This document shows positions 5,618 to 15,488 of a stretch of 64,000 bases of DNA, in pieces; position 1 is the stretch's first letter, and each line of letters opens with the position of its first letter. Source of the DNA: Escherichia phage DK-13. Made by a program: the position numbers and the translations under genes. Below the pieces are notes generated by a model. The model searched no databases and had not been told where the DNA came from. It was given only the letters and a program-made list of their open reading frames with translations. The DNA lies in sequence record MT611523.1. One strand, 5' to 3'.

Positions 5618-6106
5618 TTAGTAGCCACCGATAGGACCGTAACCATACATACGAGCACGCATTTTAGTATCTTGAATAGCTTCTTCTGTTAAAGTAAAGC
5701 GCAAGCCGATATCAAAGTGCTTCCAAATCTGACGTTCGACTTCAGCAAGGTCGTCGGTAGTGGAAATCAGATATGTGCGACCTTGAAGACGTTCAGTGGC
5801 CATTTTATCTCTATCTTTATAGAAAATATCCGCAGTACCTTCTGCATATGGGTCCGGGTGACGATAGCCTTTGATGTGCAGAGCTTCAGAAACAGTAAAC
5901 GGACACCCTTCGGCAACATCAACGTTTTTTCTATGAAATACCTTCAGCATAACGTTTTCTGGCATCGTCAGGTTCATTAATTTTGTTTCCAATGCAGTGA
6001 CCGAATCCATGCCATTGTAAACCATGATAAGGCATGCGGTAGCATCGTAAGGTCGTGTTTGACCTGCCGAATCACGGACATAGAATTCTAATTCATATAC
6101 TTTCAT
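5618..6106 (-). CDS. hypothetical protein (162 aa), in the T4 mrh position
   Basis: co-oriented ORF; size and position match T4 mrh but no sequence-level confirmation. Confidence 0.45.
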
Positions 6107-6248
6107 AATGTTTTCCTCTTACCGACTAATGGACCATCAGGAACTTTATTTTCCTTGATGTACTTTTCGTTTTCTTCCATCATTTTACTGCCAATTTTCA
6201 AAAGCAAATCCAGTGCTTCTTTTGCTCGGCGTTCAGCATCTTCTTGTG

Positions 6249-6443
6249 TCATGATTTATCTCCGTAGATATCACGCATCAGTTTAAGCGCTGCTCGTTCA
6301 GTCTTCTTTTCCTGCATGGCTTTAAGCCCGTTAACGGCCCATTCTTCAGCTTCGCGCTGCATTTCTTCCTCGGCCCTGGCTACCCAGGAATCATCAATCC
6401 CTGGAGTAACCAACCAATCTTTAAGCCAACTTGTAATTCTCAT
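6249..6443 (-). CDS. hypothetical protein (64 aa)
   Basis: co-oriented ORF, acidic/helical. Confidence 0.35.
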
Positions 6444-9221: not shown

Positions 9222-9362
9222 CCAGTAAGAAAAGCCCATGATGTTTCTCTGTGGAACTTACTGGTTGTGCCTATCGCTGCAACACAAGGGGTGCACTTAC
9301 CTCAGGTCACAACGGAACATATCCATTCCATCATCGGTTACTTTACCGGAATCCCTTCCTAA
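9222..9362 (+). pseudogene. start-less, rearranged partial copy of the 8982-9179 gene
   Basis: translation ...LWNLLVVPIAATQGVHLPQV aligns with ...LWNFVVAPIALAHGVILPVV of the upstream gene; no start codon; preceded by a copy of that gene's 3' end. Confidence 0.35.
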
Positions 9363-10108
9363 ACTTTTGCGTACTTCCAAAAATGGCCGTTTGACCTATA
9401 CATTCGGCCTGTCTTTTTATTTCTTTTACAAGCTGTGTATATATTTTGAGTATTGCCCGCCAATTGTAATAATTCCTTTGCCTCAGCTCCCGAATTATAC
9501 TTTTCAAGTATATTACCAAATTCATCGCATCTACAAACCGGTGTTCCAGTTGCCTTTCGGCATGCTTCTCGGCGCAACTTTTTCGTTTCTTCGGTTTGCG
9601 GATTTTCTTTAAATCGTCTCATTTGTGCATCGCGATTCTTTTGCCGTTGTTCATCAGTAATTGGATTATTTTGATAATACAATTTTAATGAGTTGGCTAT
9701 TTTGCTTTTGGTTTTATCAGACGCAGGGTGGTCGTTATGTCGCTTGTGTAAAGCAATTAACATTTTGTCTTTAAACTCGGATTGACTCCATAAGTTTGAC
9801 ATATGTTCACTAACGGCTTTACTATGTTCTTTTCGCATCCATTCATATTTTGCGCTATCAAATTTGTCACCACACATCCGGTGTATAGCAAACATTAATT
9901 TAGAAAGTCGATAAATTTTAAAAAGTAACAAATGCGCAATAAAATGTTCTCTTGCTGATAACAATACCAAATTATCTTCGGTGTCAGGCCCACCCAAACA
10001 CCTTGGTAGTATATGATGGGACTCCGTATAAAATGGGATATTCTTTTTGTTTAGGCCCCTTGCGAGGCCTTTGTCTATTAATTTATTATATAATTTTAGA
10101 TAATTCAT
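9359..10108 (-). CDS. HNH homing endonuclease (Mob-like), freestanding
   Basis: ESHHILPRCLGG ... N ... H HNH motif; ATG overlaps gene 61 stop (ATGA). Confidence 0.8.
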   Translation of the reverse strand: MNYLKLYNKLIDKGLARGLNKKNIPFYTESHHILPRCLGGPDTEDNLVLLSAREHFIAHLLLFKIYRLSKLMFAIHRMCGDKFDSAKYEWMRKEHSKAVSEHMSNLWSQSEFKDKMLIALHKRHNDHPASDKTKSKIANSLKLYYQNNPITDEQRQKNRDAQMRRFKENPQTEETKKLRREACRKATGTPVCRCDEFGNILEKYNSGAEAKELLQLAGNTQNIYTACKRNKKTGRMYRSNGHFWKYAKV

Positions 10109-11133
10109 ATTTTTGCATATTTGGATAATCGAAGTTTTGCCATTAAACCTTGTGCAATATTATCATTCATATAGGCTTCAATTTGCTCAGGCGTTGCTCC
10201 TTCCGATTTAATCATTTCATTTATATCTTTCGTATGCCACGGTGCATTGTCCCAGAACATAACAGCTTCTCCTGCATCGACTAATTTCTTCATACGTTTA
10301 ATTGTATCAGGATGTCTTGCTTCTGAATCCATCACCCATACTCTGGTTTCTGGATAAGGAACAGCTTCCAATGACAATGTTCCACCAGTTATCGCAATGC
10401 TGTTAGGGATAAACAAACTATCAATCGGACCTTCCATTACCCATACACGTTTACGCTCATCAATCTTGTCTACGCCATAGACTTTGGAAGCTTCTGGGTG
10501 AGCTTTGATTGTGATATATTTTTGTGGTGCATCTTTGCGAAGAGCTCGTCCTTGGAAAGATTCGATTTCTTTTTTGCCGTTGAAGATAGGAATAACCAAG
10601 CGTGGTTCATTCGTTTCATTCTTATACGTCCCAGGATTAACGGAGTTAACTAATGCGGGCCATTGGTTTGTAAACCATAACCGGTTCCAAACATTGCTCG
10701 GAATACACCGACTTTTTACATACTTAACTATCGGATGCGCTTCTGGTAAAGTATCGAGTCTTTCACAAAAAGCAAGCTGCTCAATAACCGGAGTTTTTTC
10801 TGGTTCTTTCGGAGTTTCAATGACTTCATTGCGTTGTCGCCCGAAGGCGTTCTCCTTATACTTCTCAACCATATATTCCCGGTGTAAATCCGGCTCAAAC
10901 TCTTTTATGTATTTGCTTATATGCGTGGAGTAGTCACAGTTAAAACATTTCACGTAAACCGCACCATCAGCCGGATTAGTATACGCCCAGAATCGAGCCT
11001 TGTGTGAATCTTTCTGGGAGTCCCCACAAACCTTGCAACGACAGTTTGCTTTAAATGTGCTCCCGGTGACTTCTCTATAACGTGGTTGATACGATAAAGC
11101 TCTGACTGCAAATTCTTTATCAATATATGACAT
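10105..11133 (-). CDS. 61: DNA primase gp61
   Basis: 342 aa; N-terminal CxxC...CxxC zinc ribbon and TOPRIM-like core; T4 gene order 56-61-41. Confidence 0.9.
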   Translation of the reverse strand: MSYIDKEFAVRALSYQPRYREVTGSTFKANCRCKVCGDSQKDSHKARFWAYTNPADGAVYVKCFNCDYSTHISKYIKEFEPDLHREYMVEKYKENAFGRQRNEVIETPKEPEKTPVIEQLAFCERLDTLPEAHPIVKYVKSRCIPSNVWNRLWFTNQWPALVNSVNPGTYKNETNEPRLVIPIFNGKKEIESFQGRALRKDAPQKYITIKAHPEASKVYGVDKIDERKRVWVMEGPIDSLFIPNSIAITGGTLSLEAVPYPETRVWVMDSEARHPDTIKRMKKLVDAGEAVMFWDNAPWHTKDINEMIKSEGATPEQIEAYMNDNIAQGLMAKLRLSKYAKI

Positions 11134-11357: not shown

Positions 11358-11544
11358 CAACGAAGATAGCTTTATCACCATTTGCATCAGTCACTTCATA
11401 AGTGTCTTCATGATACAATGGAATAATCCAGGTAACACCATCATCAGCGATAACATGGATTGCTTCTTGGTCTTGCGACACGATTTCATATTCTTCAAAA
11501 ATCTGGAAGACGGAAATCTTAGAGCCCGTACACATTGCACTCAT
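11353..11544 (-). CDS. hypothetical protein (63 aa)
   Basis: co-oriented acidic ORF. Confidence 0.3.
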   Translation of the reverse strand: MSAMCTGSKISVFQIFEEYEIVSQDQEAIHVIADDGVTWIIPLYHEDTYEVTDANGDKAIFVV

Positions 11545-11740
11545 ATTGTTCCCTTCTTTTAATCAGTTGGCGATGTGCCTTTTTAAGTTTACGAATCTGA
11601 CGTTTAGTCGGTCGAGCAACGTAAGCTTGAGTAGTTACTCGTCCAAAAACTCCATACTTGGGAGACGGAGTATCAATAAAGACTTCCCATTGACAAGAGT
11701 AACTATATATTGCTTTAGAGAATTGGGTCAAAACAAACAT
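11519..11740 (-). CDS. small basic protein, PTKRQIR paralogue 1 (73 aa)
   Basis: W..hI ... Y.ARPTKRQIRKLKK motif shared with ORFs 12887-13126 and 35730-35915. Confidence 0.45.
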   Translation of the reverse strand: MFVLTQFSKAIYSYSCQWEVFIDTPSPKYGVFGRVTTQAYVARPTKRQIRKLKKAHRQLIKRREQYECNVYGL

Positions 11741-11741
11741 A

Positions 11742-12095
11742 TTAACCTCGCTTCATGAAGGCATTAAAAATCTGGTCGTCAACAGACTGTTCTTGAGCTT
11801 TGACCCAAGCTCCTTCCAGAATGTCATTCGCTTCAGTAGATATCATGACCCCAATTTCAGGGTTTCCTGTTATCCATGCTGCACAATCGCGCACATTCTT
11901 TTTATCAAATGGGTAGCCGCGAGTATCTTCATAAGGTCCATTCATTACCATAAATGAGCGAGCCTTTATGATAACATCATCTTTAACGATAATATAACCA
12001 ATCGCCTGATTAAACCGAGGCTCACGGAATTCATAATGAGCATTACCGTCATTATTGCTCGCTAGTTCAAAATTCAGAAAATTATAATAACTCAT
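11742..12095 (-). CDS. hypothetical protein (117 aa)
   Basis: C-terminus VDDQIFNAFMKRG encoded by the 37-nt direct repeat shared with the next gene. Confidence 0.45.
   Translation of the reverse strand: MSYYNFLNFELASNNDGNAHYEFREPRFNQAIGYIIVKDDVIIKARSFMVMNGPYEDTRGYPFDKKNVRDCAAWITGNPEIGVMISTEANDILEGAWVKAQEQSVDDQIFNAFMKRG
11747..11783. repeat. 37-nt direct repeat, copy 1 (CTCGCTTCATGAAGGCATTAAAAATCTGGTCGTCAAC)
   Basis: identical to 12102-12138; encodes the last ~12 codons of both adjacent genes. Confidence 0.8.
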
Positions 12096-12096
12096 A

Positions 12097-12534
12097 CTAA
12101 TCTCGCTTCATGAAGGCATTAAAAATCTGGTCGTCAACTGAATATACAGGGGTTTCCAGAATTTTCAAAAGACTGTTTTTGATGTACTTACCCGGGATAC
12201 CCATATTAACAATACTGTCATTCAATTCATTGTCAGGGTTGATGTCTTTAAATTCAAACCCGTCAAACTCAACCTTGTCAGGAATACCATCAGCGAAAAA
12301 ATAAACCAATTGGTGCATTGTATTGCACGAAAATAATTTGGACTTGACCGCAATAAGTTCTTTCCAATGGTTTAATTCTTTGTTAAGAAGCTTATGAGCA
12401 AACGTAATTCTATCATCACTATCAACAAGAAAATAACCCAGGTATTGAATGTCGTCGCTCCAAAACACCCGGTATGCCTGTGCATTTGGATTTTTACAGC
12501 GAAGTTTTTTGATAACTAAATTTCTGTTAATCAT
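12097..12534 (-). CDS. hypothetical protein (about 145 aa)
   Basis: internal Met start chosen to avoid overlap with upstream ORF; C-terminus SVDDQIFNAFMKRD from repeat copy 2. Confidence 0.4.
   Translation of the reverse strand: MINRNLVIKKLRCKNPNAQAYRVFWSDDIQYLGYFLVDSDDRITFAHKLLNKELNHWKELIAVKSKLFSCNTMHQLVYFFADGIPDKVEFDGFEFKDINPDNELNDSIVNMGIPGKYIKNSLLKILETPVYSVDDQIFNAFMKRD
12102..12138. repeat. 37-nt direct repeat, copy 2
   Basis: identical to 11747-11783. Confidence 0.8.
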
Positions 12535-12535
12535 T

Positions 12536-12829
12536 TTATTCACCTGTAACCCATTGAACAATTTTGCTATTGTCAAATGAAGCATCGCAATACAGAACAT
12601 AGTTATACTGCATAACGTCACCAGAAGTCAATTTGTCAGATACTTCTTTAACCATATCAGGGCGGTCACGTTTAGTTATGTTCATAATATCAGCATAAAT
12701 CTGATGTTCAACATCAGTCTGGTCGGCAGTCATAGACCACTCACAAAGGTCTTTATCAAGTCCAGCAGTAACTGGAGCTGTACCACATGATGCTACGGTA
12801 AGAATTGCCGCGATTAATAACTTTTTCAT
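12536..12829 (-). CDS. secreted lipoprotein/periplasmic protein (97 aa), possibly Spackle-like
   Basis: signal peptide with lipobox-like VASC; T4 sp position between 61 and 41; own class-A promoter. Confidence 0.45.
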   Translation of the reverse strand: MKKLLIAAILTVASCGTAPVTAGLDKDLCEWSMTADQTDVEHQIYADIMNITKRDRPDMVKEVSDKLTSGDVMQYNYVLYCDASFDNSKIVQWVTGE

Positions 12830-12857
12830 TTCAATCTCCTCAGTAGTTGATAGGGAT

Positions 12858-12886
12858 AATATACAGCATTATCCCTTTGTTGTACA
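12858..12886 (-). promoter_or_regulatory. sigma70-type early promoter with class-A leader
   Basis: -35 TGTACA (12881-12886), 17-nt spacer, -10 TATATT; leader CCCTATCAACTACTGAGGAG. Confidence 0.5.
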
Positions 12887-13126
12887 CTATTTTAATGCAT
12901 CTTCCAGATAAATTTTGCGGAATTTGCGTTTTGTCTGACGAATCTGACGCTTGGTAGGTTTCACAGGAAATTCGAAGAACTCTACGTATTCTTGTTCATA
13001 ATCATTGTGGCCGACTGAAAGAACTAGTTCCCAGCTGCTTACGGTGCGTTGGATAAACATATTATGCTTACCAAAAGATTTATTCCAAAAAGAACTAGGG
13101 GTAGGTTTCATTAATGCGATATTCAT
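12887..13126 (-). CDS. small basic protein, PTKRQIR paralogue 2 (79 aa)
   Basis: VKPTKRQIRQTKRKFRK C-terminal motif. Confidence 0.45.
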   Translation of the reverse strand: MNIALMKPTPSSFWNKSFGKHNMFIQRTVSSWELVLSVGHNDYEQEYVEFFEFPVKPTKRQIRQTKRKFRKIYLEDALK

Positions 13127-13330
13127 TTAAATTTCCTCAATGCGGGCATCATATTCAAAAACTTTATTGTCATTAACAAAGGCTTTAACCAGCGCATTAT
13201 TCACTTCTGCATACTGCACTGTAACCCATTCAATCATATTTTTGTCACTAACATCCAGCGCGGTTTCTTTGGTAAACATATTACCGTTTTCAAACCAACC
13301 AATAAATACTACGTTCTCTAATTTATACAT
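13127..13330 (-). CDS. hypothetical protein (67 aa)
   Basis: co-oriented ORF. Confidence 0.4.
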   Translation of the reverse strand: MYKLENVVFIGWFENGNMFTKETALDVSDKNMIEWVTVQYAEVNNALVKAFVNDNKVFEYDARIEEI

Positions 13331-13648
13331 TTAGATTTCCTCGCAGAAGGCCCAGGCAGCGTGATAAACTGTTGCGCCTTTAGTATCATTTAAACAAACC
13401 ACGTCAACCGGTGCAATCACACGATAAAGACGGGGTTCTCCTCCATATGAGCGAGCTGCTCTTCCTGCATAGATACGTGCCAAACCAATATCTTCAGTAA
13501 AAAACACACGCCCTAAATTTTTCTTACGCCCAACTTCTGACAGAACACCAGTTGCATCAGGAGGGCAAAGCATATTTTGGATTCCAGCATTAGAGCTTGA
13601 CCCATGATAATAAACTTTGTATTCTGCCTTGCAATCAATGGTTTTCAT
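13331..13648 (-). CDS. small Arr-like ADP-ribosyltransferase-fold candidate (105 aa)
   Basis: YYHGSS ... FFTED ... GGEPRLYRV pattern resembles minimal Arr-type ART motifs; first gene after gene 41 where T4 has dmd. Confidence 0.3.
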   Translation of the reverse strand: MKTIDCKAEYKVYYHGSSSNAGIQNMLCPPDATGVLSEVGRKKNLGRVFFTEDIGLARIYAGRAARSYGGEPRLYRVIAPVDVVCLNDTKGATVYHAAWAFCEEI

Positions 13649-13674
13649 TTTATTCTCCAGTAGTTGATAGGGTC

Positions 13675-13703
13675 ATTATAACATAAGAAAAAGGGGCTGT
13701 AAG
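13675..13703 (-). promoter_or_regulatory. early promoter with class-A leader
   Basis: -10 TATAAT at 13675-13680; -35 lies inside the terminator hairpin; leader GACCCTATCAACTACTGGAG. Confidence 0.4.
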
Positions 13704-13708
13704 CCCCT
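13686..13708 (-). terminator. rho-independent terminator downstream of gene 41
   Basis: AGGGGCT-GTA-AGCCCCT hairpin followed by T-run on minus strand. Confidence 0.55.
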
Positions 13709-13719
13709 TTTAAAATATT

Positions 13720-15159
13720 TTAAAATTTCATTTGAGCAGCAAGGTCGTCCAGGTCGCTCCTGTTGACCCTGGTTTGTCGATTCATTTCAGCCTGGCGATT
13801 CATCTCACCGGTGGCTTCTTTAACTGTAGGGCCTTGTTTAGGAGCCGAATCATCATCAACCTCATACCAGCGCTGATTACCTTTCTTAACACCCATCTTG
13901 AATTTATTATAGTAGTTCTTATCACCATAACGAGACTTAAGCTGTTTGATTAACTGCAGCCCCATTTGAGCGAATTCTTCGGTCTCAACAACACCCAACA
14001 TAAAGTCAGCTGTATGAGCAATACCAAAGGATTCTGCGATGTCAGCCATATCAATCTCAGCTGCAACGTTCGCGCCCCTGGTTGTCTGCGCTGCAGTCCA
14101 CAGGACCACATTTTTCTCGACTGCCAGACCACGAAGTTCTTCTGCAACCATCTTAATCAGACCGTAACTATTTTCGGTAAACGTTTTCAGTCTTGAGCTT
14201 GCACAGATTGCCAGGTAGTCAACAATAATCACATCTGGTACAAACCCTTGCTTCAGCTTGTACTCGTTCAGTAATGCACGGAAGGTGTCCGCATGAGCAC
14301 CGCCAGTTGGATATTGTTTTATCTTCAGAGTCCCAAGAGTCCCGGAAGCACGCCATTTTTCCATCTTAGCTTTATATTCCGCCCATGACACATGACCTTC
14401 ATCAATATCATCCAGAGATACATCCAGCAAGTTGGCATCAATACGTTTGGCACATACTTCTTCAGCCATTTCCATGCTTATATAAAGCACATTATGACCA
14501 GTCTGAAGATAGTCAGCGGCTAACGAACAAAGTCCAAGGGATTTGCCGACGTTCGTCCCGGCCAGTAAAACGTTCTCTGTACCGTACTCAACCCCACCCT
14601 TTGTGATTTTATTCAGGATGTTAATACGGAACGGAACCTTCTTCGATTTGTTCAGATAAGTCTGGAATCGAGCTTCGTAATCGTTTAACCAGTCATGGCC
14701 CAGAGCGGAGTCAAAACAGATAGACAATGCATCGCGCATGATGTCGGGGATAGCACCAATATCCGGGATTCGTTTATCACGTTTATCTTTAGGAAGTTCG
14801 GCATTACTCTGGATTTCGATAATCCTGGATGTGGCATTGAACATCGCAGACTTCTGTACATACTTCTCGGTTTCTTTAACCAACCAGTCCTGGTCTTCTG
14901 GAGTATCGGCCAGGACTCCTAAGAGTTTCTTTGTGCCTTCATATTCGACTTCAGAAAGGTCAGAACTGTCGAGCGCGATATCAAGTGCAGTCTTAGTTGG
15001 TACCGCTTGATATTCTTTTACGTGTTCGTTAATCGTATTAAAAAGGGTCTTTGCAGGACCCTTTTCAAAATATGTGTTATTCAGATATGGCCAGACTTTA
15101 ACAAAATATTCCTTGTTAAAGAGTAGCTGGGATAAAATAGTTTCTACCACTTCCACCAC
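13720..15159 (-). CDS. 41: replicative DNA helicase gp41 (DnaB-like)
   Basis: 479 aa; Walker A GTNVGKS; T4 gene order 61-41-40-uvsX. Confidence 0.9.
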   Translation of the reverse strand: MVEVVETILSQLLFNKEYFVKVWPYLNNTYFEKGPAKTLFNTINEHVKEYQAVPTKTALDIALDSSDLSEVEYEGTKKLLGVLADTPEDQDWLVKETEKYVQKSAMFNATSRIIEIQSNAELPKDKRDKRIPDIGAIPDIMRDALSICFDSALGHDWLNDYEARFQTYLNKSKKVPFRINILNKITKGGVEYGTENVLLAGTNVGKSLGLCSLAADYLQTGHNVLYISMEMAEEVCAKRIDANLLDVSLDDIDEGHVSWAEYKAKMEKWRASGTLGTLKIKQYPTGGAHADTFRALLNEYKLKQGFVPDVIIVDYLAICASSRLKTFTENSYGLIKMVAEELRGLAVEKNVVLWTAAQTTRGANVAAEIDMADIAESFGIAHTADFMLGVVETEEFAQMGLQLIKQLKSRYGDKNYYNKFKMGVKKGNQRWYEVDDDSAPKQGPTVKEATGEMNRQAEMNRQTRVNRSDLDDLAAQMKF

Positions 15160-15488
15160 CTCTTTTTCATTTTAATCTTATCAATTTCATCTTGTATTTG
15201 CATTGTAACACACTTTTCTACATGCACAGCAAGCTCCGCTTTGCGGTCTTCGGAAGGGGTACCGAAATCAACTGAAACTTTTCCAGATGGTTCAATTTTA
15301 ATTCCGGTTACGTACACAATGTGACTGGACCCATCAGGGAGTGATAACAGAATTTCCTGTCGTACAGTTCCCATGGATTGCCGGATAATCTCCAAACTTT
15401 TTTCGTAGTAAGGTACAGAAGGAGCCTTAGCTCCCTCCGCATCTTTCTCGAAATTATCTAAATCAGATAAATCGATATCATTCATCAA
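15144..15488 (-). CDS. hypothetical protein (114 aa), in the T4 gene 40 position
   Basis: co-oriented ORF between uvsX and 41; assignment by position and size only. Confidence 0.4.
   Translation of the reverse strand: MMNDIDLSDLDNFEKDAEGAKAPSVPYYEKSLEIIRQSMGTVRQEILLSLPDGSSHIVYVTGIKIEPSGKVSVDFGTPSEDRKAELAVHVEKCVTMQIQDEIDKIKMKKRWWKW

Follow-up and report, generated by a model that had tools for sequence, protein, structure and literature searches.

What is the small gene that follows the replicative helicase gene 41 in Escherichia phage DK-13, and what does it do during infection? The window analysed here is a stretch of 64,000 nucleotides (nt) of this phage (sequence record MT611523.1), and the gene in question is the open reading frame (ORF) at 13331..13648 on the minus strand. 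An original prediction, made from the letters of the DNA, had described it as a candidate small ADP-ribosyltransferase (ART) of the Arr type, standing in the position of the antitoxin gene dmd. We find a conserved phage gene whose product is predicted to have the ART fold. We propose, with a probability of roughly 0.55, that this product is an active mono-ADP-ribosyltransferase dependent on nicotinamide adenine dinucleotide (NAD+), and that it is an effector, produced directly upon infection, which acts on the host or counters its defences.

The ORF starts with ATG and encodes a product of 105 amino acids (aa), MKTIDCKAEYKVYYHGSSSNAGIQNMLCPPDATGVLSEVGRKKNLGRVFFTEDIGLARIYAGRAARSYGGEPRLYRVIAPVDVVCLNDTKGATVYHAAWAFCEEI. 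The three motifs on which the original prediction was built are all found in it, with YYHGSS at residues 13-18, FFTED at 49-53 and GGEPRLYRV at 69-77. The protein matches PHROG 2110, a family listed as of 'unknown function', over its full length (E 1.3e-58). A tblastn search with the protein gave matches in 609 phage records, at identities from 100% down to about 35%; by host these records include Escherichia (215), Klebsiella (116), Acinetobacter (68), Aeromonas (62), Enterobacter (29) and Vibrio (14). Two alignments were used for profile searches, one of 44 sequences (A1) and a broader profile of 68 sequences (A2), and residue counts were taken over 216 aligned relatives. The A1 profile found 244 relatives at E <= 0.001 in a library of 1.84 billion representative proteins. 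With the PHROG match and with relatives in this number of phage records and library proteins, chance occurrence of the motifs was rejected, and the ORF is confirmed as a real conserved gene. Several of the homologues are named 'putative ADP-ribosyl transferase' in GenBank and one is named 'rifampin ADP-ribosyl transferase'; database annotations, and also one paper of comparative genomics, had already pointed to the ART nature of the family.

To describe the fold we used an AlphaFold2 model of the protein generated from the A1 alignment (mean predicted local distance difference test score 88.5, predicted template modelling score 0.79). The predicted order of elements is a strand at residues 13-18, a strand at 48-51, a helix at 54-68 and then four strands. 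The split beta-sheet core of ARTs (strand 1, strand 2, helix, strands 3-6), the element on which the original prediction had staked itself, is present in this model. The best PDB matches found by Foldseek were the Arr structures 2HW2 and 9IAF, both at probability 1.00. Among viral models beyond the close homologues, the top match was a phage protein named 'Ms Rifampin ADP-ribosyl transferase'. The model is also structurally similar to the ART lobe of Tpt1/KptA.

The relation to Arr can be followed at the level of sequence profiles. The A1 profile found no match in the PDB, and the sole PDB entries matched by the A2 profile were those of Arr (Arr-ms at E 0.0027, Arr-2 at E 0.11). In this alignment YHG[ST] of the family is paired with LHGT of Arr, E38-x-G-R41 with E-A-G-R and V-F-F-T with I-Y-I-T, while the long helix falls on the Arr helix and strand 3 on FIVEP. 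Relatives recovered by A1 at E 1e-26 to 1e-30 also score above the gathering cut-off of the Pfam Arr-ms model (PF12120, 25 bits), namely P0164 with 35.2 bits, P0147 with 29.4, P0132 with 27.5 and P0129 with 26.9. Just 5 of the 44 close homologues matched Arr-ms, the best of them at E 0.084, and an hhalign comparison of A1 with a single Arr-3 sequence was weak and partly mis-registered (probability 46%) and was not relied on. Taken together, the profile alignment and the Pfam scores of the relatives indicate a relation to Arr by homology, beyond a common fold. The resemblance of the motifs to Arr-type segments, as first noted from the sequence, holds in the profile alignment, and the reading of the protein as ART-fold and Arr-like is supported.

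The positions expected to line the NAD pocket are strongly conserved in the family. At least 213 of the 216 relatives agree at each of H15, E38, R41, F49, T51 (T or S) and Y60: H15 in 215, F49 in 214 (with Y in the other 2) and T or S at position 51 in all 216. R63 is R or K in 214 of them. G16 is invariant in both the A1 and the A2 alignment and is followed by S or T at position 17, so that the family has both the strand-1 His of an H-G-[ST] motif and the strand-2 aromatic-x-[ST] motif of ARTs. The conservation of these residues shows that the NAD-pocket positions are under strong constraint.

The company that the domain keeps in other proteins bears on its role. While the protein of ORF 13331..13648 is a stand-alone version, 57 of the 267 collected relatives are of 160 aa or more, and in relatives of 500-1000 aa the ART domain is C-terminal. 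It is fused to a lambda-type portal and a 2H/Acb1-like phosphoesterase in P0154, to ART-PolyVal in P0131, to ART-PolyVal and NUDIX in P0152, and to GNAT and Toprim in P0179. It also lies inside giant proteins, with a minor-tail/tape-measure-type domain in P0139 (3924 aa) and with a CHAP domain in P0172 (2892 aa). The domain is thus embedded in polyvalent and virion proteins, and these fusions are of the kind that Iyer et al. 2017 (PMC5512222) described for polyvalent effector proteins delivered with the virion. This suggests an effector that is delivered or made early in infection. By eye, two further elements were seen in several mid-size relatives: a ParB-like 'DGHHR' region, which lies upstream, and the motif 'YFQMGSSLP', for which there is no Pfam model.

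Outside phages the family is very rare. A profile search with a tighter alignment, over 185,579 species of bacteria and archaea, each represented by a single genome, found 5 loci only, and the family is therefore essentially phage-restricted. One of the five is T4-like phage DNA in a 'Flagellimonas marina' assembly, another is a solo ORF adjoining a transposase-like ORF in a Kaiserbacteria metagenome-assembled genome (MAG), with no obvious partner, and none of the five has an informative bacterial immunity or antitoxin context. On the 178-kb 'Flagellimonas marina' contig (NZ_JBHSCL010000010.1) the homologue at 5965..6282 is near-identical to the form found in Enterobacter and Klebsiella phages, and T4 Rnl2-type RNA ligase-like and DprA-like ORFs were recognised by eye in its flanks; the contig is probably contaminating T4-like phage DNA in an assembly of Flavobacteriia. 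P0039, on a 179-kb 'Selenomonadaceae MAG' contig, is a similar case. Among the phages, nucleotide-metabolism genes recur near the homologues without being conserved. In Aeromonas phage AS-gz (locus L004, 2501..3574) the homologue is followed by one small ORF and then by a gene annotated as guanosine-3',5'-bis(diphosphate) 3'-pyrophosphohydrolase, and in Acinetobacter phage Berthold the second gene upstream is that of a 'putative nucleotidyltransferase'.

The locus itself was compared with that of T4 and of close relatives. The window holds the uvsX-40-41-...-61 replication-gene block of a T4-like phage, entirely on the minus strand (Table 1). The region 12800-15200 shares 97% identity with Escherichia phages ECML-359 and pEC-M719-6WT.2 and, over 89% of its length, about 97% with Shigella phage SP18 (recorded as Gaprivervirus, Tevenvirinae). 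The ART-like ORF is, as had been stated, the first one downstream of gene 41. It does not stand in place of dmd, however, as the ORF directly downstream of it is itself Dmd and has counterparts annotated as such in the near-identical phages; replacement of dmd was accordingly rejected. The dmd ATG follows immediately upon the TAA stop of the ART-like ORF. What we take to be the T4 Dmd sequence is about 57% identical to the Dmd of two near-identical loci (L001 and L002, the latter from SP18). After dmd comes a homologue of tifA, the presumed third gene of an early operon. In T4, gene 41 is followed by a 58-bp gap without an annotated gene, then by dmd and then by gene 61.4.

The gene had also been credited with an early promoter of its own, and a promoter match is indeed present ahead of it, aligned with the part of T4 in which the early promoter of dmd and tifA has been placed. 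Srikant et al. reported that an early promoter upstream of T4 dmd drives both dmd and tifA (PMC9391042). In DK-13 the match is interleaved with a terminator-like hairpin that follows gene 41, such that the -35 element lies in the loop and the 3' arm of the hairpin. This combined cassette can be aligned with the sequence between 41 and dmd in T4. It is identical ahead of the SP18 homologue (L002 2111..2178) despite different upstream genes, SP18 having two extra genes (one goF-like, one hypothetical) between 41 and the ART homologue, and from this comparison the cassette appears to travel together with the ART-dmd-tifA unit. With dmd and tifA downstream and the cassette aligned with T4, the ART-like gene is best described as an added first cistron of an early ART-dmd-tifA unit. 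The description of the locus as one that harbours anti-toxin genes is borne out by dmd and the tifA homologue here and by gene 61.2 in the same region of T4, which encodes AdfA, an inhibitor of DarT toxins (PMC9391042).

Table 1. Features of the ART-dmd-tifA locus and neighbouring ORFs in the 64,000-nt window
Feature	Coordinates	Strand	Remarks
Gene 41 replicative helicase	13720..15159	minus	PHROG 19, E 2.6e-124; upstream neighbour of the ART-like ORF
Intrinsic-terminator-like hairpin	13689..13711	minus	AAAAGGGGC-TTACA-GCCCCTTTT; after gene 41
Early-type promoter match	13675..13703	minus	CTTACA, 17 nt, TATAAT; extended-minus-10 TG; sigma-70/T4-early-type, 10/12
Shine-Dalgarno GGAG	13655..13658	minus	6 nt before the ATG of the ART-like ORF; read from sequence; conserved in SP18
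ART-fold ORF, PHROG 2110	13331..13648	minus	105 aa; minimal Arr/KptA-like ADP-ribosyltransferase domain
dmd, antitoxin against RnlA/LsoA	13127..13330	minus	67 aa; PHROG 2102, E 1.1e-33
tifA (T4 gene 61.4) homologue	12887..13126	minus	79 aa; 45% identity to T4 gp61.4, E 1e-16
174-aa ORF	12097..12621	minus	PHROG 8539
117-aa ORF	11742..12095	minus	PHROG 4122
Second tifA homologue	11519..11740	minus	73 aa; 39% identity to T4 gp61.4, E 1e-13
HNH-type homing endonuclease ORF	9359..10108	minus	249 aa; PHROG 655, E 6.6e-45

We propose the following course of events. The early unit would be read in the order early promoter, ART-like gene, dmd, tifA. As the product of its first gene, the protein would be made in the first minutes of infection, alongside two inhibitors of host toxin-antitoxin systems. 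It would be an NAD+-binding enzyme with a core of about 95 residues in the ART fold. Its family is restricted to phages and has Arr and Tpt1/KptA as the closest relatives that have been characterised. With NAD+ as the donor, it would attach ADP-ribose to a target that belongs to the host or is specific to infection, in the service of takeover or counter-defence. The related domains in portal, tape-measure-like and polyvalent virion proteins may be delivered by other phages upon infection. Precedents for such a role would be the anti-CRISPR ART AcrF11 and the T4 enzymes Alt, ModA and ModB. AcrF11 (PDB 6KYF) is an ART that acts on a CRISPR complex; it has no detectable sequence similarity to the phage protein. 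Alt, ModA and ModB are ARTs of T4-like phages that act early on host components (PMC5512222; bioRxiv 2025.11.20.689424). These enzymes are of far greater size and fall into another clade, R-S-E; the PHROG 2110 family is closer to Arr/KptA.

As for the acceptor, our preference is for RNA or a small molecule, modified at a hydroxyl or a phosphate, over the classical modification of Arg or Asn in proteins, and this is the weakest step of the proposal. We favour an oxygen nucleophile because the T4-like clade is without the strand-5 Glu, because the nearest relatives use a hydroxyl acceptor (Arr) and a phosphate acceptor (KptA), and because the E-x-G-R-K-K-N-L loop is invariant and basic. It is entirely possible that the acceptor is a protein.

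Several points weigh against an active early effector. Position 93 lies immediately before strand 5, where ARTs of the H-Y-E type place the catalytic Glu. It is T or S in 113 of the 115 T4-like members and E in 9 of the 13 giant-protein relatives. D88, the first residue after strand 4 and the topological equivalent of Arr Asp84, is D or E in 95 of the 115 T4-like members and poorly kept elsewhere. As the T4-like clade thus has no conserved acid at the strand-5 position, the protein may be a binder or a hydrolase. These residue correspondences derive from sequence alignment and secondary structure. The query sequence alone gave no match in Pfam (even at E <= 10), in NCBIfam, in PADLOC or, by phmmer, in the PDB, and we found no experimental study of the PHROG 2110 family in the literature. 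Finally, the dmd/tifA neighbourhood, from which a counter-defence role is argued by association, is lost in the Klebsiella, Acinetobacter, Aeromonas and Vibrio phages.

How far could the fold be put to other chemical uses? A genuine Arr, which would inactivate antibiotics of the rifamycin type and so protect the host RNA polymerase that the phage needs, is suggested by the fact that Arr is the sole sequence-detectable relative of known structure and by the rifampin name on one GenBank homologue. We nevertheless regard this as hardly credible. The NCBIfam Arr equivalog model (NF033144, cut-off 130 bits) gives the fused relatives 26-31 bits and the query no score, while on Pfam Arr-ms the same relatives reach 27-35 bits over model positions 1-67 of 99. 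The A2 profile aligns with Arr-ms residues 16-82 of 143 only, so that the C-terminal third of Arr has no counterpart in the phage family. The active site of Arr-ms reportedly contains the triad His19, Tyr49 and Asp84, which is attributed to Baysarowich et al. 2008; the family keeps the His, has Phe at the residue aligned with Tyr49 in 214 of the 216 members and conserves the Asp in part. On the failed Arr models, the missing third and the exchange of Tyr for Phe, a true Arr was rejected. The phage protein also differs from Arr (PF12120; PDB 2HW2, 9IAF, 9IBA) in its length of 105 aa against about 143-150 aa, in an additional K-K insertion in the basic loop, and in belonging to a phage-restricted family in an early operon rather than to an integron or chromosomal resistance context. 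The other relative, Tpt1/KptA (PDB 9LD3, 7KW9), would point to ADP-ribosylation of a terminal RNA phosphate (2'-PO4 or 5'-PO4) or of a ribose hydroxyl, by which RNAs cut by host RNase toxins could be repaired, capped or protected. This seems to us rather unlikely. Tpt1 has three of its four catalytic residues (Arg-His-Arg) in an N-terminal RNA-binding lobe, and this lobe is missing from the phage protein, a single domain in which strand 1 begins at residue 13 with nothing structured before it. Position 49 is Phe and not the second His of the H-H-h signature, and there is no match at the sequence level. The fusions are weak evidence for such a function because polyvalent proteins combine functionally unrelated domains (PMC5512222). 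It is conceivable, too, that the protein has NAD or ADP-ribose as a ligand but transfers nothing, with the ART pocket used for binding alone; it would then be a sponge or a hydrolase for NAD-derived immune signals, or a simple NADase. In favour of this, the T4-like clade lacks the canonical catalytic acid and yet H15, F49, T51 and Y60 of the pocket do not vary, and the protein is very small. We consider it quite improbable all the same, since no ART-fold sponge turned up as a precedent in this work, since the Glu at position 93 of most giant-protein relatives points to catalysis in the family, and since a drain on NAD+ would harm the NAD-dependent enzymes of the phage itself.

Other alternatives concern the partner of the enzyme and its target. 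For phages of Escherichia, Shigella and Salmonella, a pair made up of a toxin, an ART of the 'p0068' family, and Dmd as its antitoxin was predicted by Iyer et al. 2022, who placed p0068 in the H-Y-[EDQ] clade and speculated on RNA substrates (PMC9503650). The PHROG 2110 ORF, as the only ART-fold gene found beside dmd here, is probably of the p0068 family, with which it shares the phage groups and the Dmd neighbour; in contrast to the published account, Arr/KptA are its nearest kin on the present data, and the family is distributed independently of Dmd. A phage type II toxin-antitoxin pair, with the ART as toxin and the adjacent Dmd as its dedicated antitoxin, would agree with that published prediction, with the abutting TAA and ATG of two ORFs that have one upstream promoter match in common, and with the adjacency to or overlap with an annotated dmd in several lineages of E. 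coli phages. We judge such a pair unlikely, as the linked distribution expected of partners is not observed. The 797 records with Dmd homologues (E <= 1e-3) are almost all from Escherichia, Shigella, Enterobacteria, Yersinia and Salmonella phages, whereas phages of Klebsiella, Acinetobacter, Aeromonas, Enterobacter and Vibrio are rich in the ART gene. No Dmd-like sequence was found within 2.5 kb of the ART gene in four distant phages (of Klebsiella, Acinetobacter, Aeromonas and Vibrio), in a search that very divergent copies of the short and fast-evolving Dmd may escape. Conversely, dmd occurs without the ART gene in T4 and, by the counts for Escherichia phages (Dmd in 595 records, the ART gene in 215), in several hundred records more. 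These largely independent distributions argue against an obligate pair, and the two genes look more like co-residents of the variable early region between 41 and 61 than like partners bound to each other by function. Moreover, a target of Dmd has already been demonstrated in RnlA (PMC9391042), and a lytic phage has no need of an antidote to an enzyme directed at its host. The available text of the HIDEN-SEQ preprint on T4, Bas37 and Bas54 (bioRxiv 2025.11.20.689424) does not mention the ART-like gene. A tentative possibility, to which we give more weight than to the toxin-antitoxin pair or the other chemistries, is a new kind of counter-defence enzyme, a minimal ART without the Glu, expressed along with Dmd and TifA, that disarms a defence outside the reach of those two. 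Its acceptor would be a host toxin or defence protein, an RNA end or a nucleotide signal, and unrelated phages would deliver the same domain with the virion.

The neighbouring genes further downstream gave some observations of their own. A second homologue of TifA (T4 gp61.4, an inhibitor of ToxN) is encoded in the window, and both TifA homologues have an RPTKRQIR basic motif and cross-match PHROGs 2375, 3272 and 12748. The adjacent 117-aa and 174-aa ORFs end alike, in a tail of 13-14 residues, SVDDQIFNAFMKR[GD], and T4 gp61.2 (AdfA, anti-DarT) has the same tail at its C-terminus, SIDDQIFNAFMNRG. Apart from this tail the two ORFs and T4 gp61.2 are mutually unrelated, and it looks as though variable N-terminal modules carry one conserved C-terminal tag. 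The HNH-type homing endonuclease ORF lies directly downstream of the gene 61 primase ORF (10105..11133), with an overlap of 4 nt, and is absent from this place in pEC-M719-6WT.2.

T4-like phages are the classic model of viral ADP-ribosylation through Alt, ModA and ModB, and PHROG 2110 is a further, unrelated lineage of ARTs, missing from T4 itself and found in more than 600 sequenced phages as well as in virion-associated giant proteins. In DK-13 the ART-like gene heads a presumed operon, and each of the two genes that follow it there overcomes a toxin-antitoxin defence of the host. The identity of the acceptor could yield a new counter-defence mechanism or a new class of substrate for ADP-ribosylation, and it would also decide the published idea of Dmd as the antitoxin of a phage ART.
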